Virus record (IMG/VR): IMGVR_UViG_3300035701_000002 | Direction: 5' to 3' (one strand) | Origin: a virus | Length of the DNA stretch: 64,000 nt | Shown here: piece after piece, positions 2,366-29,310 of the stretch | Position numbering within the stretch: the stretch's first letter is position 1 | Layout: every line of letters starts with the position of its first letter | Notes under the pieces: generated by a model | Seen by the model: only the letters and a program-made list of their open reading frames with translations | What the model was told of the DNA's origin: nothing | The model's database searches: none | Translations under genes and position numbers: made by a program

Positions 2366-4360
2366 ATGTCCAGAAGAAGGAAAGTGCTAACGGCCGTCAC
2401 AGTAGTCCTGGTACTGGCCGCCTTCACGTGGATGTCACTCCCGTATGCGGTGAGGAGGGAGGTCAGAAGGAGGGCGGAGTCCAGAGGACTGAAGGCGGAG
2501 GTCGGGGACGTGAAAGTCCGGCCGGGGAGGATCGAGCTCCGGGACGTGAGAGTGTCGTCGGACCGGCTTCCGGTGAAGCCGTTCGTGATCGGAAAAGTGA
2601 CCGTGCTGACATCGTGGCTCGAGGCTCAGGAAGTAGAGGCGGACGGGGCGTCGCTGGAGATCGACGGGGACGCGGTAGACCTGGTCAAAAAGGTCCAGGA
2701 CATGAAGGGCAAGAGGGAGGGCGGAGGATCCGTGAGGGCGTCCGTGAAGAACTTCAGGATCACGTGGGCCGGCCCATGCTCCGGGTCCGGATCGGCGAGC
2801 GCGGAGGGAGTTTCAGCCTCGTCAGGAACACTGACCGCCGACTCGGTGAGCATATCGTGCTACGGGGTTTCGACAACCGCCCAGAACGTGTCCGCGGGGA
2901 AGGGGCAGGCGAACGCGAAGAGCGTGGAAGCCAAGTATGGTGGATACGTGCTGAGGGCGAGCGGGGTGACCGCAGGTCCGGACGAGAAAGACCTTTGGTC
3001 AAAGCCGTGGGCCAGAGCCGACTCGGCGACGCTGGAAGCGCACGGGGCGACGTTGGAGGCAAAGACAGTGAGGGCGTCGGCCGACGCCATCGAGAGGAGC
3101 GCGAAGGCGGGGGCCGGGACAGCAGTCTTGAAGTACGAAGGCCTTCAGGGCGACGTGCTGGCCGAGAACGTGGAGGTGGGGGCTTCCGGAAAGAAAGAGG
3201 GAGAGCTCGAGCTATCAGTGTCGACGAAGAGCCTCAGCGGCGTGTATAAGGCCGTGACCGGGGACGGCGTAACGGCCATGTCCCTGTCCGGGGGCGGGAC
3301 CATATCGTGGGGGAAGAACTACTCGAAGCCGTGGGGCGCGAGAGGGTGGAGGTTCGCGCTCGGAAGCGCCACAGCGTACGCCAAGGCTGAGGTCAGGGAG
3401 GACGGGTTCTCTGCGGAAGCCGCCCTCGGAGATCCGGGAGGTAGCGGAGCTGCGTGCAATGACCTGCTCACGTCCATCCCGAAGGGGATGGTCCCGAAGC
3501 TCGACGGCTTCGCCGCCGAGGGGCGCGTCCAGGCGGGCGTAAAGGTCGACATGAAAAAGGAGGCGGTCGTACAGGTGACCCTGAAGAACGGATGCAAGTT
3601 CGTCTCGTGGCCAGACAGCATGTCGCCGAAGTCATTGAAGCGAAAGTTCTCGAGGACCGTATACGGGGTGAGGGGAGAGCCCGTCGAGCTGGATTCGGGC
3701 CCCGGGACGAAGGACTGGGTTCCGTACCTGAGGATGTCAAGATTCCTGACAGCGGCCGTCCAGACGACGGAGGACCCGGGGTTCTTCAGGCACAAGGGCG
3801 TGGACGTCGGGGCGGTGGAGAACTCGATCAAGCAGGACATCGAGTCCGGGAAGTTCGTACGGGGGGCGAGCACGGTGACCATGCAGCTGGCGAAGAACCT
3901 GTGGCTCACGAGGTCCAAGACGATCTCGAGGAAAGTGCAGGAAGCGTTCCTCACAACGTACCTGGAGCAGGTTCTGACGAAGGAGGAGATACTCGAGCTC
4001 TACTTCAACATAGTGGAGTTCGGACCGATGCTGTACGGAGTAGGTCCGGCCTCAAGGAAGTACTTCGGGTCGCCTCCGGACGAACTGTCTCTCGGGCAGT
4101 CGTTGTTCCTGACGTCAGTCCTTCCGAGCCCGAAGGCGCAGTGGTTCGGACCTGACGGAAAGATTCAGGAGTCGAGGATGAAGTGGCTCCACGCCATCAT
4201 GGAGACAATGAGGAAAAGGAACCTGGTGTCGGAGGGCGAGCTTCAGGACGGACTTGCGGAGTGGCTGGTGCTAGGGAAGTCCGACCCTGACATCAGGGTT
4301 CCCGAGGCGGGGCCGGTTATCGTGAATCCGGGAGGGCTGGACCCGGACTGGGGACACTGA
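2366..4360 (+). CDS. membrane-anchored AsmA-like protein fused to a C-terminal GT51 peptidoglycan glycosyltransferase (transglycosylase) domain
   Basis: N-terminal TM segment VLTAVTVVLVLAAFTW is followed by an AsmA-like stretch (LKAEVGDVKVRPGRIELRDVRVSSDRLP...). The C-terminus carries GT51 motifs: EDPGFFRHKGVD, TVTMQLAKNLWL, and RKVQEAFLTTYLEQVLTKEEILELYFNIVEFG. The upstream 1916..2365 part of the listed ORF is Ser/Arg-rich and is taken to be non-coding overlap. Confidence 0.6.
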   Translation: MSRRRKVLTAVTVVLVLAAFTWMSLPYAVRREVRRRAESRGLKAEVGDVKVRPGRIELRDVRVSSDRLPVKPFVIGKVTVLTSWLEAQEVEADGASLEIDGDAVDLVKKVQDMKGKREGGGSVRASVKNFRITWAGPCSGSGSASAEGVSASSGTLTADSVSISCYGVSTTAQNVSAGKGQANAKSVEAKYGGYVLRASGVTAGPDEKDLWSKPWARADSATLEAHGATLEAKTVRASADAIERSAKAGAGTAVLKYEGLQGDVLAENVEVGASGKKEGELELSVSTKSLSGVYKAVTGDGVTAMSLSGGGTISWGKNYSKPWGARGWRFALGSATAYAKAEVREDGFSAEAALGDPGGSGAACNDLLTSIPKGMVPKLDGFAAEGRVQAGVKVDMKKEAVVQVTLKNGCKFVSWPDSMSPKSLKRKFSRTVYGVRGEPVELDSGPGTKDWVPYLRMSRFLTAAVQTTEDPGFFRHKGVDVGAVENSIKQDIESGKFVRGASTVTMQLAKNLWLTRSKTISRKVQEAFLTTYLEQVLTKEEILELYFNIVEFGPMLYGVGPASRKYFGSPPDELSLGQSLFLTSVLPSPKAQWFGPDGKIQESRMKWLHAIMETMRKRNLVSEGELQDGLAEWLVLGKSDPDIRVPEAGPVIVNPGGLDPDWGH

Positions 4361-4572
4361 TGAGGGTGTCCGCCAGGACCGGGCATCACTGGATGGTAAG
4401 GGTCCGGTTCATCGGGGATGGGGAGGAGTGGAACGTCGTCTACTGCGCCCGGTGCGGACACGAGATGAACATGAACTATCCGCCGCCGGACGACTGGCTG
4501 GACGTCCTGACGATGACGAAGATCCCTCCGTCGTGCGACGAAAACGCGGTCCTCAGGGTGATGGAGGACTAG
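4360..4572 (+). CDS. small zinc-ribbon protein, HDW/CxxC paralog family, C-terminal tail LRVMED
   Basis: 70 aa with ...GHHW...EEWNVVYCARCG...PSC... and tail AVLRVMED*. Its ATG overlaps the stop of the GT51 gene (ATGA). Confidence 0.5.
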   Translation: MRVSARTGHHWMVRVRFIGDGEEWNVVYCARCGHEMNMNYPPPDDWLDVLTMTKIPPSCDENAVLRVMED

Positions 4573-6147: not shown

Positions 6148-6654
6148 ATGGCGTTCCTGGGAATAAGGGTACCCGCGGCCGCGGCGGCAGAACTGTCGTC
6201 CATCGCAGTGCCGGAAGGCAGGCGGCTCGAGCCCGGGGAGATGCACATCACACTCCTCTACCTGGGGAAGGACACGCCCCTGGTGTCGGCCCTTGGGGCC
6301 GTCATGGGATCGCACACGGTGGCCAGGGCCTGGAAGCCGTTCACGGTCCACGCCGCCCTCCTCACAAGCTTCCCCAGGAACCCGGACGACGGGGTCCCGG
6401 TGATCGTCCGCGTCGTATCGGAGGAACTCATGAAGTTCCGCGAGGAGGTACGCAGGGCGATGGACCGGATGTCAGTACCGTACTCGAACAAGTACCCCGA
6501 GTACAAGCCGCACGTGACGCTGACCTACGTGGACGAGGAGGGCGTAGCCCCGTCCAGGATCAGGCCCGTGTCGTGGACCGTGGACAGGATGACGGTCTGG
6601 GCCGGCGAGGACATGGACAGCGTCGTCTCGTCGGACGTATACCTGATGGGCTAG
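6148..6654 (+). CDS. 2H phosphoesterase (LigT / 2'-5' RNA ligase / cyclic phosphodiesterase superfamily)
   Basis: Two H-x-T-x motifs (HITL and HVTL) lie about 95 residues apart in a 168-aa protein. The gene is divergent from vsr. Confidence 0.65.
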   Translation: MAFLGIRVPAAAAAELSSIAVPEGRRLEPGEMHITLLYLGKDTPLVSALGAVMGSHTVARAWKPFTVHAALLTSFPRNPDDGVPVIVRVVSEELMKFREEVRRAMDRMSVPYSNKYPEYKPHVTLTYVDEEGVAPSRIRPVSWTVDRMTVWAGEDMDSVVSSDVYLMG

Positions 6655-6958: not shown

Positions 6959-7261
6959 ATGAAAGGGCTGATAGACAGAGCGCTGAGGCTGCTCATGGAC
7001 GGTCTTCGCGGAATGGCAGCGGGAAGCCAGAGGCGAATGGCAGCCAAGTCGATCGTGAAGGTCGAGGCGGACGGCGGGTACCTTCTCAAGTGCGGGTGCC
7101 TCGTGCACGTCAAGCCGACGGACCTGAGGAGGATGATGGAGAACTTCGGGCCCGAGATCGTCCTCGAGGTGGAGCTCGAGGTTGCGAGCAACCACGAGCA
7201 CGCAGGCGCTCCAGCAAGGCGCTCCCGGACGAGGAAGCCCGTGGGGAAGACCGACCCCTAG
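6959..7261 (+). CDS. hypothetical protein (100 aa)
   Basis: ORF with normal composition; short plus-strand island. Confidence 0.4.
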   Translation: MKGLIDRALRLLMDGLRGMAAGSQRRMAAKSIVKVEADGGYLLKCGCLVHVKPTDLRRMMENFGPEIVLEVELEVASNHEHAGAPARRSRTRKPVGKTDP

Positions 7262-7905
7262 TCGTCCATGATGTCCGACACGAGGCGCTCCCTCCAGCTC
7301 TGAAGGAGGTCGTCCTCGGACAGGACGTCGTGGCTAAGGTTCTCGCGGACGAAGCGCTCGAGCCTCTTCATCTGGGAGACGCGCTCCTTGGCGACGAACT
7401 CGGCGACGGCCTTCTCCACTATCGGACCGGAGGACGCGCGGGCCTCGGACACGGCGGCTTCGACGGCGGCGCTGAGGGCGGCCAGGGGCTCATTTCCGAC
7501 CATCTTGTTGAGGATCTCGAAGACGGCCTTCCTGGATACGCGCAGGGAGACGGTGGGCGTGAACGACTTCTCGAGGCGCTCGACGACGTTCCCGGCGAGA
7601 TGGTTCCATCCGGACGCCAGGAGGACCTTGCCTGTGGACCACAGCAGGACGGACGCGTTGTTCGTCACGACCGTCTGCAGGCGGTTGTCGTATCCGAGGG
7701 AGACCTTCACGGCGCAGTCCGGCCCGGCCACGCGCGAGAGAAGGAGCTCGCGGGCGTGAAACACGAACGAGGACTCGTGCCTCCGGACGTACTCGAGCGA
7801 GTCCTCATCCCCGCACATGACGGGGACGATCAGTCCGAACCGGAAGGAGAGCCTGGAGGCGAGCTGCGAGTCCAGGACCGATAGGAGGGAGGCCCGGGCG
7901 TCCAA
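7258..7905 (-). CDS. hypothetical protein (215 aa)
   Basis: ORF with normal composition; ends ...LVSDIMDD*. Confidence 0.5.
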   Translation of the reverse strand: MDARASLLSVLDSQLASRLSFRFGLIVPVMCGDEDSLEYVRRHESSFVFHARELLLSRVAGPDCAVKVSLGYDNRLQTVVTNNASVLLWSTGKVLLASGWNHLAGNVVERLEKSFTPTVSLRVSRKAVFEILNKMVGNEPLAALSAAVEAAVSEARASSGPIVEKAVAEFVAKERVSQMKRLERFVRENLSHDVLSEDDLLQSWRERLVSDIMDD

Positions 7906-8197: not shown

Positions 8198-10537
8198 TCA
8201 GATCTTTACTTCCTTCTCCAGAAGCTCGGACTTGAACTCGATCTTCTGACCGTCGACGTCGACGGTCATTGTGTTCTCGTCGAGGCTCTTGAACTCGGAG
8301 AACCAGACCTGGCCGACGATGAGGCTGAAGGTCGTCTTGGCGATCTCGAAGATGAGGCCGCGGACGGTCTTCTTGGAGGCCTTCGCCTCCCCCTCGAGCC
8401 ACGCCTCGAGGACCTTGTCCTTGTCGGCCGCCTTCTTGTAGATCGGGCTCGCGAGAAAGGCCTCCGTGTCGTCGTACGCGGACTTCATCAGGAGGCCGCC
8501 CGGATTGAGCTTCCCCTTCGCCACCTGCTCGCGGAGCTCCTTCAGGGACGGGAGCTTGGACAGGCCCTTCAGGGACGTCTTGAGCTCCTTGCTCATGTAG
8601 AGGTCGGTGGACTCCGCCTGGACGGACTTCGGGTTGAAGCCGCCGTCGGTGATGCCCTGCTCCTTGAGCCAGGCCGCGGCCTCATCGCCGTACTGCGAGG
8701 CGATGCCCTCCGCCTTCTTGGAGGGGAGGAGCTCCTTGACGTATGCGTTGAAGACCTTCTGCGCGGCCTGGGCCTTCGTAAGCTCGTAGTTGCGGACGAA
8801 GAAGTCCTTCGCGCTCACGTCCTTCACCATCTTCCGGTTGATCACCGGGAGGGTGTCGAGGAAGACCAGCGCGCGCCCGTCGCCGTCGATCGTCATCGCC
8901 CCCTGAGGGACCGTGCCGTCGCGGAGGAGGCCGGTGAGCTTCTGGTTCGTCTCCTTCGAGAGCTTCACGGGGAGCGTCTTGACGTTCACGAGGCCGTCCT
9001 TGACGACCGCGTAGTTGCGGAAGACGGAGGTCGGGAACTTGGCGGGGATCCTCTTCGCGACGTCGCCCGACGCGCGCGCCGAGACGTCCACGATCCCGGG
9101 CTTGCGGACGAGGACCGAGATGTTCGGACGGTCCTCGTTGTACGTGAGGTTCGCGATAGAGTACCCGTCCGGGGCCGGATCGGCCTCGAACCTGAGAGCC
9201 TCGGGCTTGGACGAGATGGCCGCGATCTTCGAGGCGAAGTCGGCGATCTTCTTCGCGTCCTTGGTCTTCCCCATCTCGGAGGTGAGCTTCTCGACCTCGG
9301 CCTGCTCCTCGTCGGTCAGGACGGACGAGGCGTCGACGCGCCCGCGCCCGATGCGCGAGTACTTGAAGCTCGGATCCTCGAGAAGGAGCCGGTTTCCGTC
9401 GTCCTCCGAGAGGATCCGGAGCATGTCGAGGACGGTGAAAGCGTCGTCGCGCGGGACCTTGTCCGGATCCCAGCCGGCGGTCCACCGGGCCTTCGGATCG
9501 AACGCGGCCGCCTTGGCGGCGTCCATGAACTCCGAGTACTTCTGCTTTCCGAAGCAACCGCCGAACTGCTCGATGAACCGAACGTCGCCGGTCGACCTGA
9601 GGAGGGGGAGGACGACGTCCGGCTTCATGCGGACGCTGAAGAGCGACACGGCGGCGTACGCGGAGTCGACGAAGGGAACGGCCTTCTGGGCCTTCGAGGC
9701 GTCGGAGACGGACTCGGGGCTCTTGTCCCCGACGGCGCTCGGCGACAGATACCAGACCTCGGCGAGGTCCTCGGGGACGTGCGCCTTCCCGCCCTCGACG
9801 GAGAAGGTGACGAGATCGCCGGCGACGAGGGCCCAGGCGAACCCGCCGACGGTGTCGGCCTTGACCTGGATCTCCGCGCGCGGGGCTCCGGAGAGGGTCT
9901 TCTGCATGGCCGCCTCGAAGAGCGGAGCGTACTTGTCGAAGTCGTCCGCGAAGATGAGGCTGCCTCCGGCCTTCTCGGCCATCGCGGTGAGGAGGGGGCG
10001 GTCAGCGTAGTAGCCGTATTCGACGAAGGTCGACGAGGAGAAGCTCCCCGCGGCCTTCTCGACGGCCTTGAGGAGGTCCTGGCGCGGCCATTGGTTGTCG
10101 CATCCGTCGCTCATGAAGAAGAGCGAGAAGGCGCTGCCGGGGAGCTTCTTGGCGACGCGGGCGACGAGGGCGGCGGCCTCCTCGATCGGCTCCTTGAAGC
10201 CGGTCATGCCGACGGTCTTGAGCCAGCGGTCTATCGCGGCGTTCACGTCCTTGAGGTCCGCGAGGGTGGCGACGGGCTCGGCCTCGAGTAGAGTGCCGAA
10301 CTGGCCCCGTCCGGAGAACCACACGATGCTGATCGTGTCCTTCTCCTTCAGCATCTTCGGGAGCTTCTTCTTGAGCTGCTCGCGGATGCGCGGGAGGTCC
10401 GAGCACATGCTCCCGGAGCAGTCGATGACCGCCACGTGGTTGACGGGGGTCTCTACCGGCTTCTTCGGGGCGCCCTTCCCGACCTCCTGACGAACGAGGT
10501 ACAGGGAGTCGGAAACCTTGTGGGACGTGGTCTTCAT
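8198..10537 (-). CDS. von Willebrand factor type A (VWA) domain protein, 779 aa
   Basis: N-terminal MIDAS elements are present (VIDCSGSM ... FFMSDGCDN). The C-terminal region is long and uncharacterised. Confidence 0.7.
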   Translation of the reverse strand: MKTTSHKVSDSLYLVRQEVGKGAPKKPVETPVNHVAVIDCSGSMCSDLPRIREQLKKKLPKMLKEKDTISIVWFSGRGQFGTLLEAEPVATLADLKDVNAAIDRWLKTVGMTGFKEPIEEAAALVARVAKKLPGSAFSLFFMSDGCDNQWPRQDLLKAVEKAAGSFSSSTFVEYGYYADRPLLTAMAEKAGGSLIFADDFDKYAPLFEAAMQKTLSGAPRAEIQVKADTVGGFAWALVAGDLVTFSVEGGKAHVPEDLAEVWYLSPSAVGDKSPESVSDASKAQKAVPFVDSAYAAVSLFSVRMKPDVVLPLLRSTGDVRFIEQFGGCFGKQKYSEFMDAAKAAAFDPKARWTAGWDPDKVPRDDAFTVLDMLRILSEDDGNRLLLEDPSFKYSRIGRGRVDASSVLTDEEQAEVEKLTSEMGKTKDAKKIADFASKIAAISSKPEALRFEADPAPDGYSIANLTYNEDRPNISVLVRKPGIVDVSARASGDVAKRIPAKFPTSVFRNYAVVKDGLVNVKTLPVKLSKETNQKLTGLLRDGTVPQGAMTIDGDGRALVFLDTLPVINRKMVKDVSAKDFFVRNYELTKAQAAQKVFNAYVKELLPSKKAEGIASQYGDEAAAWLKEQGITDGGFNPKSVQAESTDLYMSKELKTSLKGLSKLPSLKELREQVAKGKLNPGGLLMKSAYDDTEAFLASPIYKKAADKDKVLEAWLEGEAKASKKTVRGLIFEIAKTTFSLIVGQVWFSEFKSLDENTMTVDVDGQKIEFKSELLEKEVKI

Positions 10538-10912: not shown

Positions 10913-11881
10913 TCAGCTCTTCGGGTTGACGGCCCAGCCGCCCTTGCGGAACCAGTCCATGTTTTTCTCGAGGAGCTGGGGGTATGTGCCCACGCCGCGG
11001 TTCGACTGCGCCCGGGAGAGCGCCTCGATCTCGGACATGCCGACGTCGGAGCGCTGGTTCTTGACCAGGTGCTGAAGGAGGGCCTTCGGGGAGCCGGTCG
11101 GCGTCCCGTGCCTCTTTTCCCACTCCTTGCCCTTGGCGACCGCGGGAGGGTTGGCGAGGACGTCGGCGATGATCTGCTTGAGCTCTCGCGCGATCATCGC
11201 GGAGTCGACCTGGGCCTCGACGATGTTCTCCTGGGCGTCGATGAGGAGGTCGACGTCGCCGATGTCGACGGCGCCGGAGATGGCCCCGCCGCCGGAGCCC
11301 TCGCCCTCACCCTCGTGCGTGTCGGCGCAACCGCCGCCGAGGAGCTTGTTGTAGTAGCACGCGGTGACGTAGAGCTCGACGAGGGCCCCGCCCTTCGTAT
11401 GGCCCTTCCACGGGCCGGCCGGGGTCTCCGGGACGGCAGGGGCCTTCAGGCCCCTCGGGGGGACGGGGCGCTCAGAGTCGGGCTTCTCCGACTTGAAGAC
11501 GTGGGGGTCGTAAGTGCACTGGACGAGGATGCCGCCGATGAGGAGCTCGGCGTCCCAGGACATCGGGCGGACGCCGAAGGAGACATACCCGTCGCGGAAG
11601 CCCTTGCCCCCGGGGTTGGTGTCATAGTAGTCCCCCATGCTGAACTCGCCGGGGACTGCCTTCACAATCTCGGCCATGAGGGCATCCCTCAAGGTCAGAC
11701 CGAGGGTCCTACTGGTGGCGAGGAGGAGCCTCGCGAGCGCCGACGCGACACGGCTCCGGCTCGGCGAGTCCGACGACTCGATGACGGAGGCGATGAACCT
11801 GAGGCGGAAGGACAGATCACCCGGCTGCATGCCGTGGGGAAGGGATAGAAGACCTAGGGGGTAGGCGCCGGAGGCGGACAC
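10913..11881 (-). CDS. hypothetical protein (322 aa)
   Basis: Long ORF with normal composition and a Gly-rich acidic linker. Confidence 0.5.
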
Positions 11882-12645
11882 GTACAGGAGCTCGCGGGGC
11901 CCGGGGGGCCGACCATGCCGGGGACCCCCTGGGGCCCGGGGTCGTTCTTCGGTCCAAGGTTTCCCTGAAGGCCGGGCGGTCCCTGGGGGCCGGCGGGGCC
12001 CGCGGCACCGTCCAGGCCGCGGGGGCCCGTGGGGCCCGGAGGCCCGGACGGGCCGCGGAAGCTCGAGAAGGCGACGGGGTCCCTGACGAGGGTCGCCACG
12101 ATGTCCTTACGGAGCTTTGCGTCCTGAGAGAGCTTCGTGACGACGATGAGGCGGAAGTCGTCGTTGTTCAGCATGGCGTCCACGAGCCGCGAGATGCGCT
12201 GGGCGTCGGCCGAGTTCACCTCGGCGACGGCCGCACCCTTGGCGGACTTCGCGGACTCGGCGTCGACGCGGTCCCAGAAGGCCTTGTCGTCGGTGAGCTT
12301 CTTGACGCGACCGTCGCAACGGTCGTCCACCTTGGAGAGGAACGGACCGTCCTGGAGAAGGTCGTCGGTAGCCCTCCTCCTGAACCCGGAGTTCTCCGCG
12401 TACTCGTTCCTGACGACCTCTCGAGACCAGTCCTTGACCTGAGACTGGGCCTTCAGGGTCATGGCGCCGACGGCGAGGACGCAGACGACGGAGACGTATG
12501 GGGCGCTCTTCCGGAACGCCTCCACAAACCTGTGGAGGGCGGACGGAGGAGGCTCGGGAGGGGGCTCGGAGACGCGGACGGTCGACTCAAGGTGTATATC
12601 GGCCTCGACATGGACGTCGGATCCGGAGGGAGGGGGCTCGGTCAT
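11854..12645 (-). CDS. collagen-like (Gly-X-Y repeat) protein with N-terminal TM segment
   Basis: TM segment [16 protein letters not shown]-terminal [53 protein letters not shown] (about 18 G-X-Y triplets). Confidence 0.6.
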
Positions 12646-13295
12646 TCGGCGGCCCCCGGAGGCGCGTACGCATGGACGAGCCTCTGATAGTCAGGGCTGG
12701 GGGCGCCGGCTGGGGTCTGGGAGGCTGCATGAAGGGCGATCTCGGCGGACATCCCCTTCTCCTTCACGAAGTAGCCGGCAACGAGGGCGCCCGTCCTGTC
12801 GGCTCCGAGGGAGCAGTGGGCGTAGAGGGCGATCTTCGGTCCGGCCTCAAGGAGCTCCTGGACGTAGGAGACGAGGCCAGAGAAGTTGTACCCGGGCCAC
12901 CCGACGAAGTCGGACGGGTCCTGTCCGTCGGCAAGCCCCTCGATGGGCCACCAGATAAGGCTCGCGGCGTGGCGGCCTCCGCCGGCGTTCAGGTGCGTAC
13001 CCCAAAGCTTCCGGGAGTCATATCCCGGCTGGAGGTACGGGGGCCAGTACGATACGCCCCACTGATCTGGGAGGTCGAAGGCCTGTAGCTCGCGGAGGAG
13101 CATGGGGTGCTCCCCGGTGCAGTCGATCAGGGACACGTCCAGGAAGGCGTATTCGGAGAGGTCCACGCCGAGCTTGGACCCGATCTCCGAGTACGCGAAC
13201 GATCCGTCCGGGAGGATGGGGACCGGACCGCGGATCAGGAGGCTCTGGCCGACCGTATCGACGAGGACGACTCGAGCAGGATCGAATACTCCCAT
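12642..13295 (-). CDS. protein tyrosine / dual-specificity phosphatase (CX5R P-loop)
   Basis: Active-site signature [10 protein letters not shown] (C-x5-R). Start placed at Met MGVFDPARV (13295), because the N-terminal 226 codons of the listed ORF are Arg/Pro-rich and overlap other ORFs. Confidence 0.55.
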
Positions 13296-13318: not shown

Positions 13319-13498
13319 TCAGGATTTCATGATCTGGCGGACGACCTCGTCCATGCAGTCCGGCCGGGGGCGGCTCGAGTCGGGCGCACGAAAGCCGCAG
13401 ACCTGGCAGACCTCCTCCCAGTACGGCTTGCTCCCATAATGGTTGCGGACCGGCACCCAGACGTGGCCCTGAGGGTCCGGTCTTCGAGAATCGGGCAT
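13319..13498 (-). CDS. small zinc-ribbon protein (59 aa), HDW/CxxC paralog, tail VVRQIMKS
   Basis: Translated here by hand: MPDSRRPDPQGHVWVPVRNHYGSKPYWEEVCQVCGFRAPDSSRPRPDCMDEVVRQIMKS*. It is below the 60-aa cutoff of the ORF track. Confidence 0.45.
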   Translation of the reverse strand: MPDSRRPDPQGHVWVPVRNHYGSKPYWEEVCQVCGFRAPDSSRPRPDCMDEVVRQIMKS

Positions 13499-13945
13499 TC
13501 AGGATTCCATGACCTGCTTGACGGCCTTCACCCTGTCTCGGTACAGGGCGTCCGGGGCGAGAGAGTACTCGATCTCGTAGCAGTCCGGGAGCTTGGCCCA
13601 GAAGCGCTGGTTGCGGGCCGGCTTCTGGCCCTTCATCACCTTCCACGAAATGCTGTCGAAGTCGCTCCCGACCTGGAGCGCAGACTTGCTGAAGGTCCGG
13701 ATGTAGACGCGGTCGCACTCCAAGACAGAGCCCTTGGGCAAGGTCATCCTGAGGGACTTCAGCCTGCCGTACTGCGAACGGCCGGCCGCGTCCTTCTCGT
13801 ATCCGTCCCTCCACGGGTCGAACTTCGCTGGGACGAGCTTGTGCTCCTGGGCGAACTTGACGTTTCGCCTCTCGAGGTAGAGGTCGAACTCCCAGGCCTT
13901 CTCGAGGGTGATGCGGTCGCCGCACGCGGGGATGAACAGCTTCAT
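13499..13945 (-). CDS. hypothetical protein (148 aa) with C-terminal tail VKQVMES
   Basis: ORF with normal composition; ends ...RVKAVKQVMES*. Its start codon overlaps the stop of the upstream ORF (ATGA). Confidence 0.5.
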   Translation of the reverse strand: MKLFIPACGDRITLEKAWEFDLYLERRNVKFAQEHKLVPAKFDPWRDGYEKDAAGRSQYGRLKSLRMTLPKGSVLECDRVYIRTFSKSALQVGSDFDSISWKVMKGQKPARNQRFWAKLPDCYEIEYSLAPDALYRDRVKAVKQVMES

Positions 13946-14178
13946 GACTCCATGACCTCCAGGATGGCCTCACGGGCCAGATCGCCGAACAAGTGTTCCC
14001 CGAGCTTGAGGCACAGGGCCGCGACGCGGCGGAGCTCGGTCTGGAGTTCGGCGTCGGCGCGGAACTTCGACCTTCCCGACCGGAGCTTCCTCAGGAGGGT
14101 ACGCTGACGGACGGCCAGGTTCCGCCGCGTCTTGCGAAGACGGACGGCCTTCTTCCATTCCTCCTGGGTCGGCATCAT
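13942..14178 (-). CDS. hypothetical basic protein (78 aa) with C-terminal tail ILEVMES
   Basis: ORF ends ...AREAILEVMES*. Confidence 0.45.
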   Translation of the reverse strand: MMPTQEEWKKAVRLRKTRRNLAVRQRTLLRKLRSGRSKFRADAELQTELRRVAALCLKLGEHLFGDLAREAILEVMES

Positions 14179-15804: not shown

Positions 15805-16098
15805 TCATGTCTCCATGACCTGGCGAACACGCCCTTCGTCGCAGTCGTGCCGGTCGAGCTGCTCGGTCGGGTCCGGAACGATGACCTCGTCGTGGACGAA
15901 GTGGTCATATAGGACGGGCTCCGCGGTGCCGCACTCGGAGCACACCCAGAAGAGCTTCCCCTGGTTCCAAGGATGGTCCGGAGAGAACTGGGAGGCGGAC
16001 CGGGCGTGGAGCCGCTCCCGCTGGACGAAGTCCCACCGGCGCCCCCTCGAGTCCTCGTGGAAGCGCTCGTGGAAGCCCTTTCCGTTGACTTCTTTCAC
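15805..16098 (-). CDS. small zinc-ribbon protein (97 aa), HDW/CxxC paralog, tail RVRQVMET
   Basis: ...SPDHPWNQGKLFWVCSECG...HDC...RVRQVMET*. Confidence 0.5.
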   Translation of the reverse strand: MKEVNGKGFHERFHEDSRGRRWDFVQRERLHARSASQFSPDHPWNQGKLFWVCSECGTAEPVLYDHFVHDEVIVPDPTEQLDRHDCDEGRVRQVMET

Positions 16099-16153
16099 GG
16101 GCGCCGGATACGACTGAGCCCCGCAGACTTACGCCGGCGGGGCTCAGAAGGAC

Positions 16154-16618
16154 CTAAGGAGACTTCATGGCCGTTCGGATCCAGTCCGAGAACGCATCCG
16201 GGTCTTGAGTGTTGACTCCAGCCGATTTGACTGCTGAGTAGAGCTTCTGAGGGTCGACCGGATCGACAATCTTGACCGTCCCGTCCGCGAGCTTCCTTCG
16301 GCGTTGACCCAGGATGTTGTTCGGAAGGACCGATGGTTGAGCCTTGTGATGATCATGAGCACGACCCATGATGACCCCAGCCGGAATGAGAGTCTCCGAC
16401 GCGGAGGAGAGGACGCCCCTCATGACCTCGATGTTGTCGAGCTCCACCTTGGACGACTCCGTCGTCTGGTTGTTCCGAGTCTCTACCTCGTTGGGGGCCA
16501 TGAGGTCGTGGTACTGGCGAATCTTGACATTCGCTTCGTCCACCGCTCGCCTGGCGGCGGAACCCGCTTCAGCGATCTTCCCTCTAAGGATCCCGTCACC
16601 GGGAACTGCTTCAGACAT
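16154..16618 (-). CDS. hypothetical protein (154 aa), first gene after the capsid-gene terminator region
   Basis: ORF with normal composition. Confidence 0.5.
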   Translation of the reverse strand: MSEAVPGDGILRGKIAEAGSAARRAVDEANVKIRQYHDLMAPNEVETRNNQTTESSKVELDNIEVMRGVLSSASETLIPAGVIMGRAHDHHKAQPSVLPNNILGQRRRKLADGTVKIVDPVDPQKLYSAVKSAGVNTQDPDAFSDWIRTAMKSP

Positions 16619-16805
16619 GGTGTATCTCCTTTAGTTGGTCCGACACGCCCAAGAGAGCGCCGTGACGAAAGAGTCTACACTCACATGGAGCCCGAACGAC
16701 ACCCCGAAGGTTCAGGGAACTCTCGAACGAACGGACGGATGTCCGGCAGGGCCCAGCCAAGCCCGAATACTTTTCGACCCCGGCCACCGCGAGGGCGACC
16801 AGGGT

Positions 16806-16831
16806 CGAAAGGAACTAGCCGGAGCTAGTTC
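16806..16831 (-). terminator. stem-loop immediately after the major capsid gene stop (GAACUAGC-UCCG-GCUAGUUC, then CUUUCG)
   Basis: Perfect 8-bp inverted repeat gaactagc/gctagttc at 16812-16831, overlapping the MCP stop codon. A second 9-bp inverted repeat tttcgaccc/gggtcgaaa lies at 16772-16810. Confidence 0.45.
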
Positions 16832-17720
16832 AGCGCGTCACGATGAGACGGACGAGACCGCGCGGGTTGTACGCGCCGATCCCGAGGTTCTCGAACATGC
16901 TGAATCCGATCGTCCTCTCCTCGGGGTTGTCCGCCGAGAGGACCGTGAGCTCCGTACGGACCGGGATCCGGCCGAAGTGCTCGGGCTCGCAGCAGACGTA
17001 GACGACGCCGGCGGGGACGAGGCGGCTGACGATGAACTGGGCGTTCCAGCCCGTCGCCATCATGCCCGTCTTCCAGAGGGTCGCCTGCGACTCGATGTCC
17101 AGCACGTCGCGGCCGAACTTGCGGATGTCCGCGTAGTCCGTCGCGTTCATGTAGACCCGAGCCACGCGGAGGTCGTGGCGCTCGATCTCGGCGAACGCGT
17201 CCGCGAGGACGGCCGCGGAGATCGGGGCGACGACCGGGATGTCCGGGTTCGTCCCGCCCGGAAGCGAGTCGAAGCCGTTCACCGCGATTGCGTCCATGAT
17301 GCTGAAGACGCGGTCGTCCTCGGCAGCCTGGATCTGGGCCTTGCCCAGGTCCTGCATGCGCTTCAGGAGGTCGTAGCGACGCTCCTTGATCTGCGTGAGG
17401 GGCGCCTTGGGCAGGGCGGCGATCTCGAAGAGGGGGAAGATCACGCGCCGCGGCTTCATGACCGCGGTGATGCTCTCGCCTTCCTCGCCGATCACGTACG
17501 CCGTGACGTCGGGGTCCTTGTCGTAGATCGGGAGCGCGCCGTCCGGGAGCTGCTCGACGAGGAAGGTCTTGCGACCGACCGACGAGTAGTCCCTGCGCTC
17601 ACGAAGCGGCTGGATCATCGAGGCGGCGAGGCGCTTGCGGCCCGCCGAGGTCCCGATGAACTTGTCGACCATCTGCTCTTTGATCGTGTTGTCCACGACC
17701 TGTACGCCGAAGGGATTCAT
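16830..17720 (-). CDS. major capsid protein, HK97 fold
   Basis: 296 aa with the typical phage major-capsid layout. Sits in the head module and is followed by a long structured non-coding region. Confidence 0.75.
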   Translation of the reverse strand: MNPFGVQVVDNTIKEQMVDKFIGTSAGRKRLAASMIQPLRERRDYSSVGRKTFLVEQLPDGALPIYDKDPDVTAYVIGEEGESITAVMKPRRVIFPLFEIAALPKAPLTQIKERRYDLLKRMQDLGKAQIQAAEDDRVFSIMDAIAVNGFDSLPGGTNPDIPVVAPISAAVLADAFAEIERHDLRVARVYMNATDYADIRKFGRDVLDIESQATLWKTGMMATGWNAQFIVSRLVPAGVVYVCCEPEHFGRIPVRTELTVLSADNPEERTIGFSMFENLGIGAYNPRGLVRLIVTR

Positions 17721-20008: not shown

Positions 20009-21628
20009 TTAACAATTGGAGATCGAGGAAATCCGGCCCTTCCAGGTCAGAAATCCTCTTTCTGAGGCGGAGAGATCCCTTCCGAGTCTCGACCTGCACG
20101 CGGCAAGGTACGAGGTCTCGCTCGGGAAGTTCTTCATGGCGCCGACGTTCATTGCGACCTTGTAGAGGGCGGAATTGTACTCCCGTCCCCTGCAGCGGTC
20201 CTCGATCCATGAAAGGACTATCAAGTCCCTCGGGGTCATGCCGGCCTTCCTCACGCCTGCGGCGCCGTGCTGGTGCACGACCTTCCACGCGGAGGTGGCC
20301 CAGCGGATCAGTCTCTCGTTCCCGGGGAACTTCGACCTGAGCCTGCGCCCGAACTCCTCGGAGGAGCGGACGATACTGTCGTTCGCGGACTCGAGGTTAA
20401 CAGGCGACGAGACCGTCCCGACGTCCTCGGGCTTCGGAGCGAGCTTCTCGCCGAGCTTCTCGACCATGATGGTCATGAGCTGCTCTTGGGCCTTCTCGAG
20501 GAGCTCGTCGAGCTTGTCGGACTTGGGCTTCGATCCGGCGTCGGACTGTCCGCCCTGATCCTGTCCGCCCTGATCCTGTCCGCCCTGGTCGCCGCCCTGA
20601 TCAGATTGATCTTGACTCTGACCCGCGCCTTGATCCTGTCCGAAGAGATCTTCCTGGCCCTGGCCCTGGCCCTGGCCCCCAGCCTGATCCTGGCCCCCAG
20701 CCTGATCCTGCCCCTGGTCGGCTTGAGCCTTGCGCGTGGATGCGGCCTTCTTGACGCCGTCCATCTCGGGAATGGAGCTACGGAGGATCTGGACCGAGCG
20801 CGACCTGTCCATCTGTGCCGCGTACTGACTGGAGTCGGGGTTCAGAATGTTCCTACGGACGGCCCCGCGGAATGCCGGATTCCTGACCCAGCTGGCCTCG
20901 ATGAACTGGTTGGAGTTAGGGACGGAGACGTGCCCGATGACCTCGGACAGCGGATGCTCCACGCCGTCCTCGTCGGAGAACTTCGAACCCTTACCGTCGT
21001 ACTGGACGCACGGGCAGAGCTGGGAGTCGTCGGACGCGACGTTCCCGCACTTGGTGCAGATGGTGAAGAGGCTGATGCACCCCATGGACAGGCCGGTGAT
21101 CGCGCCCGTGAGGATGTCCGACACGAGCTGATTGTGCTTGCGGTCGGTGGCGACGAGGATGTCGATGTAGCAGCTCTTGCCGAGATCGCGGGCGATAGCG
21201 TCGACGATGAAGCCCTTGGAGAGCTCCGGGAGCTGGATGTGCTCGAGGTAGTTGTGAGCGCCGATGAAGGTGCGGTAGCTCGAGAGGAGCAGAGAGCGCT
21301 CCCATGCGTCGCCGTTGTTGTTGATGATGTCGTGGCAGTCGGGGACGATGCGGAAGTCCGGCCAGCGTGCGTCGATCTGGACGCCCCGGTTCATCGTCCT
21401 GCCGGTCTTCGACCCCTTCGGGGCGTAGCAGTCGACGGACGCGACGATCGTAGCGTGCGAGAGAAGGTACTGCTTCGGATCGCACTTGCGGAGGATCGTC
21501 TTCGCGGTACGGGCGACGAAGTCCTTGGGGACCGCGCCCTCGTTCTGGCCGCGGAGCTCCTCCATCCATTCGTCGAACGCAATGTTGGTGCGCTCAACGA
21601 TGGCGCTGGCATACCGCTTTGTGGCCAT
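20009..21628 (-). CDS. hypothetical head-module protein (539 aa) with GQDQ repeats
   Basis: Long ORF with normal composition and an internal (GQDQ)n low-complexity tract. Confidence 0.55.
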   Translation of the reverse strand: MATKRYASAIVERTNIAFDEWMEELRGQNEGAVPKDFVARTAKTILRKCDPKQYLLSHATIVASVDCYAPKGSKTGRTMNRGVQIDARWPDFRIVPDCHDIINNNGDAWERSLLLSSYRTFIGAHNYLEHIQLPELSKGFIVDAIARDLGKSCYIDILVATDRKHNQLVSDILTGAITGLSMGCISLFTICTKCGNVASDDSQLCPCVQYDGKGSKFSDEDGVEHPLSEVIGHVSVPNSNQFIEASWVRNPAFRGAVRRNILNPDSSQYAAQMDRSRSVQILRSSIPEMDGVKKAASTRKAQADQGQDQAGGQDQAGGQGQGQGQEDLFGQDQGAGQSQDQSDQGGDQGGQDQGGQDQGGQSDAGSKPKSDKLDELLEKAQEQLMTIMVEKLGEKLAPKPEDVGTVSSPVNLESANDSIVRSSEEFGRRLRSKFPGNERLIRWATSAWKVVHQHGAAGVRKAGMTPRDLIVLSWIEDRCRGREYNSALYKVAMNVGAMKNFPSETSYLAACRSRLGRDLSASERGFLTWKGRISSISNC

Positions 21629-21707
21629 GAATCCTCTGATGGATAAGGAGCATAGAAACTCTGAAGCTCCGGCCGTAAGTCACGGGAGGACGGACGTATG
21701 CCGGGGC

Positions 21708-22262
21708 ATGGCGGACAAGATAACTGAGGCCATCGGACGTGTCAGGGTGAAGAAGGTCGAGGTCGTCCTTTCGGAGGGGAAGGTCCTGCCGAGAGTCCCG
21801 ACGTCAGGCCTCTGGCCGAGGGTCACCCTGGAGCTGGACGGGACGGAGCGGACGGTTCCGCTCACATGGTGGGCTGACGAAAAGAAGGCGGCCAGCGACC
21901 CGCTCAAGGCCATCATGGAAGGGATCGGGGGCGACATCCTCAGAATGGCCGGCGGAAGGACTACAGCCTCGATGCCGAGGGGCCGGAGGCCGGCGCTCGA
22001 GTACGCGGTGTCGGAGGCGAACTCGAAGATCCGAAGAGCGGTCGACCGCGCCTCCCAGACAAAGGGAGGGGTCGGGGAGAGGCACAGGAAGGCGCAGAAG
22101 AGGGCCCTGAAGAAGAGAGTGCTGGAGAAGCTGCGCGGACAGTTCGAGAGCCTGATCCGGATGGAGAGGCTCGAACTCGAGGATCTGGGCGGGGCGGACG
22201 TGGGCCGCGCGTGGGACGACATCCTGAAGATGAAGGCCGTCCGCCACGTGATGGAGACCTAA
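21708..22262 (+). CDS. hypothetical protein (184 aa) with C-terminal tail AVRHVMET
   Basis: Internal Met MADKITEAIG of ORF 21486..22262. Single plus-strand gene inside the head module. Confidence 0.45.
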   Translation: MADKITEAIGRVRVKKVEVVLSEGKVLPRVPTSGLWPRVTLELDGTERTVPLTWWADEKKAASDPLKAIMEGIGGDILRMAGGRTTASMPRGRRPALEYAVSEANSKIRRAVDRASQTKGGVGERHRKAQKRALKKRVLEKLRGQFESLIRMERLELEDLGGADVGRAWDDILKMKAVRHVMET

Positions 22263-26146: not shown

Positions 26147-26368
26147 GTGTTCGGAAGACGAAAAGAGAGTCCGGGTCAGAAGGCCCGGAGGAAATCGAAG
26201 GCCTTTGAGAGGGCTCTCGGAATGAGGCCGCACGACTGGACACCAGTCGTCAAGGACGGGACTACGTGGGTCTGGCGGTGTACACGGTGCGCAGCACGGT
26301 GTGGAAAGCCATCAGAGACGCCGGGGACGTGCGGAGAAGAAGTAGTCCGGTACGTGACGGAGGTCTAG
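26147..26368 (+). CDS. small zinc-ribbon protein (73 aa; possible start at 26222), HDW/CxxC paralog
   Basis: ...RPHDWTPVVKDGTTWVWRCTRCAARCG...GTCGEEVVRYVTEV*. Very similar to 29077. Confidence 0.45.
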   Translation: MFGRRKESPGQKARRKSKAFERALGMRPHDWTPVVKDGTTWVWRCTRCAARCGKPSETPGTCGEEVVRYVTEV

Positions 26369-26565
26369 GACTCCTGGACGTCAAGGACGGCATGAAGGTC
26401 GTCCTCCATGGACTCGACATGAGCCTGGAGGTCCTGGTAAACGGTCTTACAGACAGGACAGAGCGAGTCGAGCCTACGCCGGCCTCTCTTGACGTCCGAG
26501 AGCCTGATCGTCGGATTCGCCGCCAGTTCGAACATCGGGACTTCGACCCTGCGGCCCTGGATCAT
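26365..26565 (-). CDS. small CxxC protein (66 aa), tail LDVQES
   Basis: ...LCPVCKTVYQDLQAHVESMEDDLHAVLDVQES*. Confidence 0.35.
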   Translation of the reverse strand: MIQGRRVEVPMFELAANPTIRLSDVKRGRRRLDSLCPVCKTVYQDLQAHVESMEDDLHAVLDVQES

Positions 26566-28364
26566 TCCTCGTCCTTGTCGAACCGGTCGTCTTCCTTTTC
26601 GGTCATCTTCAGGCCTGCGGACTCGGCGATGCGCTTCAGGACGTCCGTCTTCTCGACCGCCTCGTCCCCGGCCTTCGCCAGGACGGTCTTGAGGAACTCG
26701 TTGAACGTCGAGTCGTTCGGCGTGAACATGTCCTTCTTGAGCTGGGAAAGGGCGTCGTCCGAGTCGATGTTCAGAAGATCGAGGATGAAGGAGATCGGCA
26801 GGGATCCCTTCTGGTACAGGTTGAACATGAAGTCCTGCAGCTCAGTGTTGTCGCGGAGCGCGAGGCGCGTAAACTGGAGCTTCGGATACAGAAGGACACG
26901 GTTGCCGAATTCGTCCTCCTCCCAGAATCCCTTCTTCTCCGCCACCGGGGCGAAGAGCTGATCCTCGACGAACTGGGCGATGCTCTCCCGGTAGAGGAGG
27001 TACATCGTGTTCATGACGTCGAGATGAATGCGCTCGCCGGAGTAGGAGGACTCGCCCGTGAGCATTGACTCCGTAATCCGGAGGCCGATGAACAAGAGCT
27101 TGTTGGTGATGTCGTATTCTGTCGAGAGGTCGAGGAGACGGTCACGCGAGCCGATCTCGTCCCAGTGGACCTCGAAGTTCGTGACGATGGAGAAGTCCGG
27201 ATCGATGAGCGCCTGGTCGATCTGATCCCGAAGGTTGTCGGTGTCCGGCTCGGACATCTTGTCCGCCCAGACAATGCGCTTCGGGGTCATCGCGCGGGAG
27301 GCGATGGACGTCTGGGCTTGACGGAGCTTGTCCTGATAGAGGAGAGTCCTCAGGCAGCGTTCGAGAAGAGAAATCCCGCGGTCGTCGTACGCCGACTTCT
27401 TGTGCGAAAGATGGTAGCAGAAGGACGAGCAGAGGAAGTCGTCGTACGGGTTCGTGTTGAGCGGAATCGGCTGGCCGTTCAGGAGCTGCTCACGGATCTG
27501 CTCCGGGATGTCCTCGGCGATGCGGGCGGCCTCCTGATCCCCCTGCTCCTGCGCCTTCATGACGACGATCCTGTCCTTCTCGGACGGGATGAGCTCCATC
27601 TTGACGCGGTTCGTGTACTGGAAGACCTCGAGCTTCACCTGCTCCGGAGGGAGGATCTGGAGGCGCTCCCATCCGCGGTAGTGGGAGGCAACGTACTCGC
27701 GGATCGCCTTGGCCTGCTCGCTCTCGGGCTTCGGCTCCCTCTTGCGCTCCACGCGCTTCCGGGCACGGCCGGCATAGTCCACCTCGGCGATCTCTTCCTC
27801 CTTGACGTCGGAAAGCATGTCCTCGTCGATGTCGGACGTGAGGTCATGATCCTCGCAGAAGATGAAGCAATTCCCGTGGAGCCAGTACTCATGCGTCGCG
27901 TCGTAGAGAGTCTGGAAGAGGCGGACCCTCTTGCACATCTGCTCATAGAAGTGCAAGATCTGCTTGTTCCGCCTCAGGTCCTTCCCCTTGGGGAGGGACA
28001 GACGGATCTTCGACATCGGCACGTCGGTGTGGAAGTCGATGGCCGCGCCGACGATCGGGTGCGTCGTGTACCAGAACCGGAAGAGCTCGCGCTTCTCGCG
28101 CTCGGACTGGGGGAGCTCGAGGAAGTCTGTGGAGAGCTGGGGGCTGTAGAAGGCGGAGTCGGCGTTGGCCGTGGCGCCGCCGCCGGCGTTCCCGAAGTTG
28201 CCGCCGAAGGCCGCAACGCGTATGGACTGGGCTTGCTCTCTGCGGGCAAGCTTCTCCAGCTTCGTCATGCGGTTCTTCGGACGAGCCTGTTCATCAACGC
28301 GGACGACAGGCAGGTCGTTCTTGACCTGCATAACCGGGCGTACGCCGACCTTCTTCTTAGTCAT
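26562..28364 (-). CDS. portal protein (600 aa)
   Basis: Size, acidic C-terminus, and position between the large terminase and the head genes. Confidence 0.6.
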   Translation of the reverse strand: MTKKKVGVRPVMQVKNDLPVVRVDEQARPKNRMTKLEKLARREQAQSIRVAAFGGNFGNAGGGATANADSAFYSPQLSTDFLELPQSEREKRELFRFWYTTHPIVGAAIDFHTDVPMSKIRLSLPKGKDLRRNKQILHFYEQMCKRVRLFQTLYDATHEYWLHGNCFIFCEDHDLTSDIDEDMLSDVKEEEIAEVDYAGRARKRVERKREPKPESEQAKAIREYVASHYRGWERLQILPPEQVKLEVFQYTNRVKMELIPSEKDRIVVMKAQEQGDQEAARIAEDIPEQIREQLLNGQPIPLNTNPYDDFLCSSFCYHLSHKKSAYDDRGISLLERCLRTLLYQDKLRQAQTSIASRAMTPKRIVWADKMSEPDTDNLRDQIDQALIDPDFSIVTNFEVHWDEIGSRDRLLDLSTEYDITNKLLFIGLRITESMLTGESSYSGERIHLDVMNTMYLLYRESIAQFVEDQLFAPVAEKKGFWEEDEFGNRVLLYPKLQFTRLALRDNTELQDFMFNLYQKGSLPISFILDLLNIDSDDALSQLKKDMFTPNDSTFNEFLKTVLAKAGDEAVEKTDVLKRIAESAGLKMTEKEDDRFDKDEE

Positions 28365-29076: not shown

Positions 29077-29310
29077 TCAGGACTCTTGAACGTGCTGGAC
29101 GTAAACGTCGGCGCACGTCAGGCCTTTCTCCCCGGGGGCGGGACCGCTAACCCCTCGCTTCTGGGAGAAGGGCTTGGGGAGAACCACGAGCATGTGGGCG
29201 GGAGGCTGAACCTTGCTGATGCGGACGCACTGGCAGCGAGAGCACACCCAGGTCGTGTCCTTGGTCGGAAAGGGCCTAGTCCAATCGTGATCCGCGGGCC
29301 GGAGACTCAA
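29077..29310 (-). CDS. small zinc-ribbon protein (77 aa), HDW/CxxC paralog, tail VQHVQES
   Basis: ...ADHDWTRPFPTKDTTWVCSRCQC...LTC...VYVQHVQES*. Confidence 0.5.
   Translation of the reverse strand: MSLRPADHDWTRPFPTKDTTWVCSRCQCVRISKVQPPAHMLVVLPKPFSQKRGVSGPAPGEKGLTCADVYVQHVQES

Follow-up and report, generated by a model that had tools for sequence, protein, structure and literature searches.

Short terminal peptides that target diverse proteins are a known kind of signal, and the closest described systems are the cargo-loading peptides of encapsulins, the capsid-targeting sequences of phages T4 and P1, the ssrA tag and related degrons, and the C-terminal signals of Legionella Dot/Icm effectors. 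Here we analysed a 64,000-nucleotide stretch of viral DNA (IMG/VR record IMGVR_UViG_3300035701_000002; hereafter, the window), in which three adjacent small genes, and others on both strands, end in a common short C-terminal peptide (hereafter, the tail or tag). What is new relative to the known systems is the scale (about a third of the small proteins), the position and sequence of the peptide, and its occurrence in a virus. No description of such a motif, of C-terminal tails shared among huge or jumbo phages, or of C-terminal packaging tags was found in the literature, including PMC7824862.

Cargo-loading peptides have been described for encapsulins, whose shells have the HK97 fold (PMC8346489, PMC11866011). 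As in the window, a short conserved peptide stands at the extreme C-terminus of unrelated proteins, and an HK97-type capsid protein is present here too. The systems differ in that encapsulins take one or a few cargo species, against roughly a third of the small proteins in a phage known from its genes alone, and in that the outgroup, the uncultured phage LR745208, has a capsid protein 78% identical to that of the window yet a genome without tails. Encapsulin peptides are also rich in Gly, Ser, Leu and Ile, unlike the tail described here. The capsid-targeting sequences of T4 IPIII and P1 DarB are likewise short signals common to packed and injected proteins, including anti-restriction proteins (PMC9024508, PMC12373910). 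Those known from phages are N-terminal (PMC9024508), occur on a handful of proteins and in T4 are removed by the prohead protease, whereas the present tag stands at the C-terminus and is much more widely distributed. The ssrA tag and related ClpX/Tsp degrons are alike in needing a free C-terminus, in being transferable in principle and in being read by one machine, but ssrA is added co-translationally and is not genome-encoded on at least 100 genes, and the tag here ends in -E-S. The E-block effectors of the Legionella Dot/Icm system form large repertoires of small, unrelated and fast-evolving proteins with an acidic and hydrophobic C-terminal signal, as here. Those signals are a loose compositional bias over 20-35 residues read by a bacterial coupling complex, while the tail is a sharp motif of 8-12 residues in a virus.

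A trio of small genes and their common tail

The three adjacent genes are as follows, with protein endings given up to the stop codon and lengths in amino acids (aa).

13942..14178, minus strand: first gene of the trio, a 78-aa basic protein ending ..REAILEVMES (open reading frame and its translation)
13499..13945, minus strand: second gene, a 148-aa protein with a predicted SH3-like beta-barrel and C-terminal helix, ending ..YRDRVKAVKQVMES
13319..13498, minus strand: third gene, a 59-aa H-C-C-C mini zinc-finger protein ending ..PDCMDEVVRQIMKS
13942..13980, minus strand: tail-coding segment (last 12 codons and stop) of the 78-aa gene
13499..13537, minus strand: the same segment of the 148-aa gene
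13319..13357, minus strand: the same segment of the 59-aa gene

An initial annotation, made from the sequence alone, had proposed these three open reading frames (ORFs), and all of them exist on the minus strand at these coordinates, ending in ..AILEVMES (78 aa), ..AVKQVMES (148 aa) and ..VVRQIMKS (59 aa). Their junctions are also as it described them: the 78-aa gene stops, and the 148-aa gene starts, within one ATGA (13945..13942), and the TGA of the 148-aa gene (13501..13499) is followed at once by the ATG of the 59-aa gene (13498..13496). From these ATGA and TGAATG junctions we infer ordinary translational coupling, typical of phage gene arrays, which the annotation had stated as a fact. 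The order of transcription is 78 aa, 148 aa, 59 aa and then a phosphatase gene (12642..13295), and since the genes are on the minus strand, the trio lies upstream of the phosphatase gene and not downstream of it, as had been written. A scan for promoter and terminator consensus sequences around the trio gave nothing informative.

All three ORFs have the coding signature of this genome (63% GC), with GC contents of 0.83-0.93 at third codon positions and 0.40-0.49 at second positions (0.86 and 0.44 in the 78-aa gene alone). In near-identical public contigs the 59-aa ORF was called as a gene in seven of nine and was intact in all six in which it was located. These copies are no evidence of its conservation because the contigs are 99-100% identical and represent one phage population; what supports the 59-aa gene is its protein family, described below.

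The tail is the only part that the three proteins have in common. Pairwise BLASTP of the three yielded nothing significant beyond the last ~9 residues, and at the DNA level identity is confined to the last 21 coding bases (13-16 of 21), with both flanks at chance level. The three belong to separate families with differing distributions, with 166 homologues for the 148-aa protein, 3 for the 78-aa protein and about 49 for the 59-aa protein. An AlphaFold2 (AF2) model of the 148-aa protein shows an SH3-like beta-barrel plus a terminal helix, that of the 59-aa protein a zinc finger made of a beta-hairpin, a CxxC knuckle and a helix, and the 78-aa protein is probably helical, judging by inspection of its sequence. 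Searches of Pfam and PHROGs with the trio and nine other tail genes gave a sole match, of the 148-aa protein to phrog_22676 (function unknown). The tail is kept in 118 of 120 homologues of the 148-aa protein, at identities down to 47%, and in all three homologues found of the 78-aa protein (VMES, VMAS and VMES); outside the clade, homologues of the 148-aa protein are without the tail, and the barrel occurs there without the terminal helix.

The annotation had read the trio as a tandem duplication that diverged everywhere but in the tail, as might be suggested by three adjacent genes in the same orientation with a common ending. The lack of similarity outside the tail, together with DNA flanks at chance level, excludes both this origin and the recent recombination with identical flanks that had been named as a possible artefact. 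The sizes and predicted folds differ, each gene belongs to a family of its own, and the adjacency is not kept in relatives, even in those with 148-aa proteins 70-82% identical, so that we give duplication next to no probability. Nor is the trio a special local array, the tail being genome- and clade-wide, and what survives of that proposal is its notion of the tail as a real, selected, module-like element.

The tail in the window and across a clade of huge phages

At least 12 genes of the window bear the tail, on both strands. In addition to the trio, they and their variants are listed here; HCCC denotes the family of the 59-aa protein.

4360..4572, plus strand: 70-aa HCCC paralogue ending ..CDENAVLRVMED (LRVMED)
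7258..7905, minus strand: 215-aa protein with the variant tail ..RLVSDIMDD
15805..16098, minus strand: 97-aa HCCC paralogue ending ..CDEGRVRQVMET (RQVMET)
16154..16618, minus strand: 154-aa gene directly after the capsid gene, with the variant tail ..DWIRTAMKSP
21486..22262, plus strand: head-module gene beside the prohead-protease-like gene, with the tail ..KAVRHVMET (true start probably further downstream)
26222..26368, plus strand: 48-aa HCCC member with the degenerate tail ..CGEEVVRYVTEV (hmmsearch with the family profile, E 2.5e-5)
26365..26565, minus strand: 66-aa CxxC protein directly after the portal gene, ending ..LHAVLDVQES
29077..29310, minus strand: 77-aa HCCC paralogue directly after the large terminase gene, ending ..CADVYVQHVQES (QHVQES)
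38050..38322, plus strand: 90-aa HCCC paralogue ending ..CDEYVTWQVMES (WQVMES), convergent with a sigma-factor-like gene
55455..55781, minus strand: 108-aa HCCC paralogue with the variant tail ..LEAELVMAS

In a crude gene set, one that omitted three further tail genes, the pattern [VI][MQ][EK][ST] ends 5 of 69 genes, while only 2 of 18,306 internal positions have it (binomial P about 2e-13). The stops of the tail genes are TGA, TAG or TAA, and the genes at 21486..22262 and 38050..38322 on the plus strand are convergent with their neighbours, and no gene follows them downstream; coupling alone therefore does not explain the motif. The positional orthologues of 21486..22262 in four other clade genomes are all tailed (VMDS, VMES, IMES and VHES). 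LR745208 is without a counterpart of 29077..29310, its terminase being followed directly by a homologue of the window's next gene.

The HCCC family (48-108 aa, H-x-W..CxxC..C) has seven copies scattered through the window, the 59-aa gene of the trio and the six listed above, several of them between conserved head genes, and it has no Pfam or PHROG match. Among 46 sequences of the 59-aa family, H12 is nearly invariant and C31, C34 and C48 are invariant, and a Cys at position -12 from the C-terminus is present in all 46 small HCCC hits. The 59-aa protein has the four conserved putative metal ligands and the CxxC knuckle of a zinc finger, and it alone was compared with small zinc fingers of treble-clef or zinc-ribbon-like type, which it resembles in the H..CxxC..C pattern and in the hairpin, knuckle and helix of its model; structural matches of the model were weak, to C1-type domains. 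One 102-aa database protein (P0144) carries a complete tail (..SCDEARVLLVMES) and, continuing in frame, another HCCC unit with its own terminal tail; it represents either two neighbouring genes fused into one or a read-through in the annotation.

To follow the tail beyond the window, loci were retrieved via homologues of the 148-aa protein and later pooled with IMG/VR loci found by codon pattern. Tails were counted on all ORFs rather than on gene calls in high-GC loci, with a negligible false-positive rate. In the loci with 148-aa homologues (GC 47-70%), 30-65% of the called small genes are tailed. A scan of all IMG/VR for the codon pattern of E-V-M-E-S-stop returned 68 stretches, about the number expected by chance overall, but the matches are clustered: 15 belong to a single genome of 436 kb, in which an 11-kb piece holds 21 tail-bearing ORFs, and several further ones belong to other huge genomes. 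In 93 kb of that genome, a sample biased to tail-rich regions, the tail ends 36-38% of the products of 40-200 aa, 14% of those of 200-400 aa and none of the seven of at least 400 aa, and the extended motif stands at the C-terminus 69 times against 3 internal occurrences.

The pooled loci of related huge phages (GC 38-70%) yielded 197 distinct products that end in the tail (median length 96 aa). Compared by BLASTP without their last 14 aa, these form 165 clusters, of which 147 are singletons, and a Pfam search of 150 tail-bearing proteins found about 5 with any domain (ankyrin, DHHA1 and others). The tag is carried by small ORFan proteins and not by enzymes or structural proteins of at least 400 aa, and the same short motif stands at a fixed terminus of many unrelated proteins. 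The profile of the 197 tails runs from C (45 of 197) or L at -12 through E/L at -10, I/V/L at -8, V (117 of 197), I or A at -7, R/K at -6, E/Q at -5, V/I at -4, M/H/Q at -3 and E/D at -2 to S/T/A at -1, giving the consensus [C/L]-[D/R]-[E/L]-x-[IVL]-[VIA]-[RK]-[EQ]-[VI]-[MHQ]-[ED]-[STA]-COOH, with [ED]-[STA] as the terminal residues in every one of the 197.

The residue at -3 differs between genomes (chi2 24.3, df 8, P 0.002, in loci retrieved by protein homology only), and the three genomes in which the 148-aa orthologue ends in VQE[SA] are those rich in H/Q tails. Such a concerted drift would fit co-evolution with one partner per genome.

The tail is confined to one clade of huge phages in the genomes compared. 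The complete 485-kb genome of LR745208 contains zero tails and neither the HCCC nor the 148-aa family, despite a syntenic head module in which the proteins match those of the window at identities of 77-78% (capsid), 46% (scaffold-like), 46% (protease), 46% (portal) and 43% (terminase). No tail and no recurrent C-terminal motif were found in the 40 kb examined of the closest isolate, Xanthomonas phage XaC1, and no tails in the region examined of LR745206. The homologues of the 148-aa protein in isolated phages (XaC1, Nican01 and LR745206) are only distant and are tail-less. Among GTDB genomes, the 148-aa family was found only in two contigs of metagenome-assembled genomes, assigned to Methylobacter sp. 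(L018) and Lentisphaeria (L019), which are probably mis-binned phage DNA and give a weak hint of the hosts.

Candidate roles of the tail

The sharp motif along the whole helix, the free C-terminus, the unrelated carriers, the restriction to one clade and the concerted drift point to a docking or sorting signal, and on the sequence evidence we consider it somewhat probable that the tail is a lineage-specific short linear signal of this kind, read by one common putative receptor. The tag would be an amphipathic helix of 8-12 residues ending in a free acidic terminus, and through it one receptor would recognise many different accessory, effector-like proteins. The candidate receptor is probably phage-encoded because the host GC ranges widely.

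As the preferred destination of the tag we put forward the procapsid, tentatively and with low confidence. It is favoured because the tail genes of the window interleave with those for the terminase, portal, protease and capsid proteins, and because the tailed gene next to that for the protease recurs, with its tail, in four other clade genomes. The head genes concerned are as follows.

16830..17720, minus strand: major capsid protein (phrog_2522, E 5e-47)
20009..21628: protease-like gene
26562..28364: portal
29307..31253: large terminase

Across 10 clade genomes (38-66% GC; loci L118-L134) the capsid protein is 88-97% identical in aa sequence while 24-60% of the identical residues differ in codon, and the neighbouring head proteins are only 50-84% identical. 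The capsid protein appears almost frozen, a sign of unusually strong purifying selection, as expected of an interaction hub. If the procapsid is the destination, the tag would act in the manner of an encapsulin cargo-loading peptide or of the capsid-targeting sequences of T4 and P1, filling the head with a mixture of small proteins to be injected along with the DNA. Anti-defence proteins that enter the cell by injection have been described (PMC9024508, PMC12373910), and the head of the jumbo phage SPN3US contains about 50 different proteins (PMC7411985). The bolder proposal of a proteome-wide C-terminal address tag, which would send at least 100 effector-like proteins per genome to one destination, notably to the capsid for co-injection, and which would be the equivalent in a virus of effector translocation signals and of encapsulin cargo-loading peptides, we regard as doubtful. 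A T4-type prohead-protease site (hydrophobic-x-Glu, with the cut after Glu) was considered within the tail and set aside, as the cut would remove the last Ser only.

A second candidate for the tail reader, at the level of a lead, is a pair formed by a MoxR AAA+ ATPase and a zincin-VWA protein (DUF2201), for which Iyer et al. suggested, in jumbo phages of group 2.2, a part in assembling the virion and in peptidolytic processing (PMC7824862). Two loci place the pair within tail arrays (L010, 240-1367 and 3657-5147; L017, 1126-3893), the MoxR-like ATPase itself ends in ..VRKAMKD/G, and the HExxH and DxSxS motifs of the zincin-VWA protein are invariant. In nine IMG/VR contigs with this subfamily (L108-L116), tails occur within 8 kb in seven, and the pair is absent from the complete, tail-less LR745208. 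An IMG/VR scan for MoxR patterns, which were narrow, returned one locus only. The conserved Glu at -2, together with the terminal carboxylate, could be a ligand of the metal-ion-dependent adhesion site (MIDAS) of the VWA domain, an interaction that we regard as chemically plausible.

Several observations weigh against these proposals. In the HCCC family the tail helix starts at a conserved, presumed zinc-ligand Cys and therefore looks integral to the fold rather than like an appended peptide, and the shared ancestry of orthologous tail genes could partly account for the concerted drift. With respect to the capsid, the densest arrays (21 tails in 11 kb, L047) and the array at 37-57 kb of the 436-kb genome are a long way from the head module, which lies at 343-357 kb; these distant arrays, which have ligase and anti-CBASS-like genes as neighbours, look early or accessory; cargo amounting to a third of the small proteins would be a very large set; and the capsid-targeting sequences known so far from phages are N-terminal (PMC9024508). 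With respect to the MoxR/VWA pair, its co-occurrence with tails is confounded by phylogeny, and it was not found in the window or in the examined pieces of the most tail-rich genome, that of 436 kb.

Could the element act as nucleic acid, as a coupling or Shine-Dalgarno-like signal (AUGGAG), an RNA processing site or a recombination linker, with the peptide as a by-product? ATG-GAG does contain GGAG, most tail genes lie in overlapping arrays, and in 33 of 79 tails the ending TCA-TGA supplies the ATG of the next gene, the 78/148 junction being one example; this excess of TCA-TGA is the sole nucleotide-level regularity in the tails. Across the same 79 tails, Glu is encoded by GAG 32 times and by GAA 30 times, Val by all four codons, Ser by TCA, TCC, TCT, TCG, AGC and AGT, and the stops are TGA (59), TAA (11) and TAG (9). 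This free variation at synonymous sites shows that it is the peptide that is under selection, and neither nucleotide conservation nor dependence on a downstream gene was found. The common H/Q variants at -3 abolish AUGGAG, tails occur at convergent gene ends with no gene downstream and with all three stops, the amino-acid motif is held across 38-70% GC, and even within the trio the tails share only 13-16 of 21 bases between random flanks. An action as nucleic acid is accordingly very improbable and, like tandem duplication, essentially excluded.

The remaining alternatives accept the tail as a peptide and differ in what would read it. A C-terminal degron or processing signal, by which the tailed accessory proteins would be degraded or clipped at set times, handled by host ClpXP, Lon, FtsH or Tsp or by a phage MoxR AAA+ with its zincin-VWA partner, would share with ssrA-type degrons the strictly C-terminal position and free carboxylate, and Iyer et al. 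tie the MoxR/DUF2201 pair of group 2.2 jumbo phages to peptidolytic processing (PMC7824862). It would also suit carriers that are mainly small accessory ORFans in early-looking arrays, and tail arrays that hold a phage AAA+ and a metallopeptidase-VWA protein with intact catalytic and MIDAS motifs, both missing from LR745208. The tag terminus, however, is polar and acidic (-E-S-COOH) and has none of the non-polar, LAA-like last residues of ssrA. Known bacterial C-terminal degrons, those of ClpX and Tsp, are non-polar and LAA-like, and MoxR ATPases are remodelling chaperones rather than unfoldases, both of which count against a degron. As neither ClpP nor Lon turned up in the clade loci examined and the co-occurrence with MoxR/DUF2201 is confounded by phylogeny, we judge this explanation unlikely. 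That the tail needs no external receptor, serving as a stabilising C-terminal helix cap or as a helix for homotypic association, would agree with the helix in both AF2-modelled carriers, with the HCCC helix that begins at the invariant Cys -12 as part of the zinc-finger fold, and with a concerted drift that tail-tail association would also yield; moreover, polar or charged C-termini guard against tail-specific proteolysis. A generic cap, though, would require no near-identical residues on both faces (-8 to -1 are constrained) of helices on 165 unrelated scaffolds and would not be limited to one clade, and homologues of the 148-aa barrel exist without the helix, which leaves this alternative rather unlikely. 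Docking onto a conserved hub of the host (such as RNA polymerase, the ribosome, a chaperone or the sliding clamp), in the manner of the SSB tail, clamp motifs or EEVD-TPR, would account for formal properties that the tag has in common with other short terminal docking motifs and for carriers resembling host-takeover or anti-defence proteins, with Acb1 and Acb5 Pfam matches in the same arrays. To our knowledge the tail matches no hub-binding consensus (QLxLF, DDDIPF or EEVD), the related phages LR745208 and XaC1 manage without it, and genome-specific drift is more easily reconciled with a phage partner that co-evolves than with a host protein conserved universally; a host hub is quite improbable.

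Gene neighbourhood and implications

The window has a GC content of 63%. Its capsid gene is 72% identical in DNA to that of the 485-kb uncultured phage LR745208.1, a match that indicates that the window comes from an uncultivated huge phage. It also contains a replication module with a clamp loader, a primase, a RecD2-like helicase, a ribonucleotide reductase, an NAD ligase and a sigma-70 region-4 protein. The NAD-dependent DNA ligase is apparently split between opposite strands (54065..55201, plus strand, and 52645..53463, minus strand), with the adenylation and OB domains in one gene and HhH and BRCT in the other.

Next downstream of the trio is the phosphatase gene.

12642..13295, minus strand: Cys-based dual-specificity/tyrosine-phosphatase-like gene, without a tail

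Its translation contains C-x5-R, in agreement with the P-loop pattern HCx5R(S/T). The Pfam match to DSPc (E 1.5e-4, 22.1 bits) is below the curated cut-off of 33.5, and weak PDB matches to DUSP23 (E 3e-4) and YVH1 (E 2e-3) cover the P-loop region only. Its stop is overlapped, by ATGA, by the start of a gene for a collagen-like protein with G-P-x repeats (11854..12645, minus strand), which shares its co-directional run with the gene for a 779-aa VWA protein (8198..10537).

In two relatives, on three contigs, a GDxHG calcineurin-like metallophosphatase is encoded directly downstream of the 78-aa homologue (L136:551-1561; L137:1402-2080; L138). In the window the 78-aa gene is two genes upstream of a Cys-based phosphatase, where the relatives have a metallophosphatase, and the 78-aa protein may have a non-orthologous phosphatase partner across relatives. 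An Acb5 Pfam match adjoins the 78-aa homologue in one relative (L136:300-521), and the window encodes a 2H phosphoesterase with a weak Acb1 Pfam match (6148..6654, plus strand). These anti-CBASS-like matches suggest that tail arrays hold anti-defence genes.

GC-rich hairpins follow two stops on the minus strand, that of the capsid gene (16790..16830; AACTAGC..GCTAGTT, then TCGACCC..GGGTCGA) and that of the 154-aa gene (16105..16150; CTGAGCCCCGC..GCGGGGCTCAG). They look like terminators or attenuators, and the consensus scan missed them because they have no T-runs.

Gene calling in these genomes can use the motif as a sharp marker whatever it does: it validates many ORFs of 40-80 aa, the 59-aa gene included, and it delimits the clade. 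If the tail is indeed an address tag, it would sort the 'dark matter' of these huge phages, about one third of their small ORFans, into a functional class with a common destination or handler. The peptide of ~12 residues would then also be a simple handle for identifying the putative receptor, and a portable tag that loaded very large capsids or controlled turnover would be useful in phage engineering. It would further mean that a single short signal can serve phages, as it does bacterial secretion systems, to bring order to a large repertoire of effectors.

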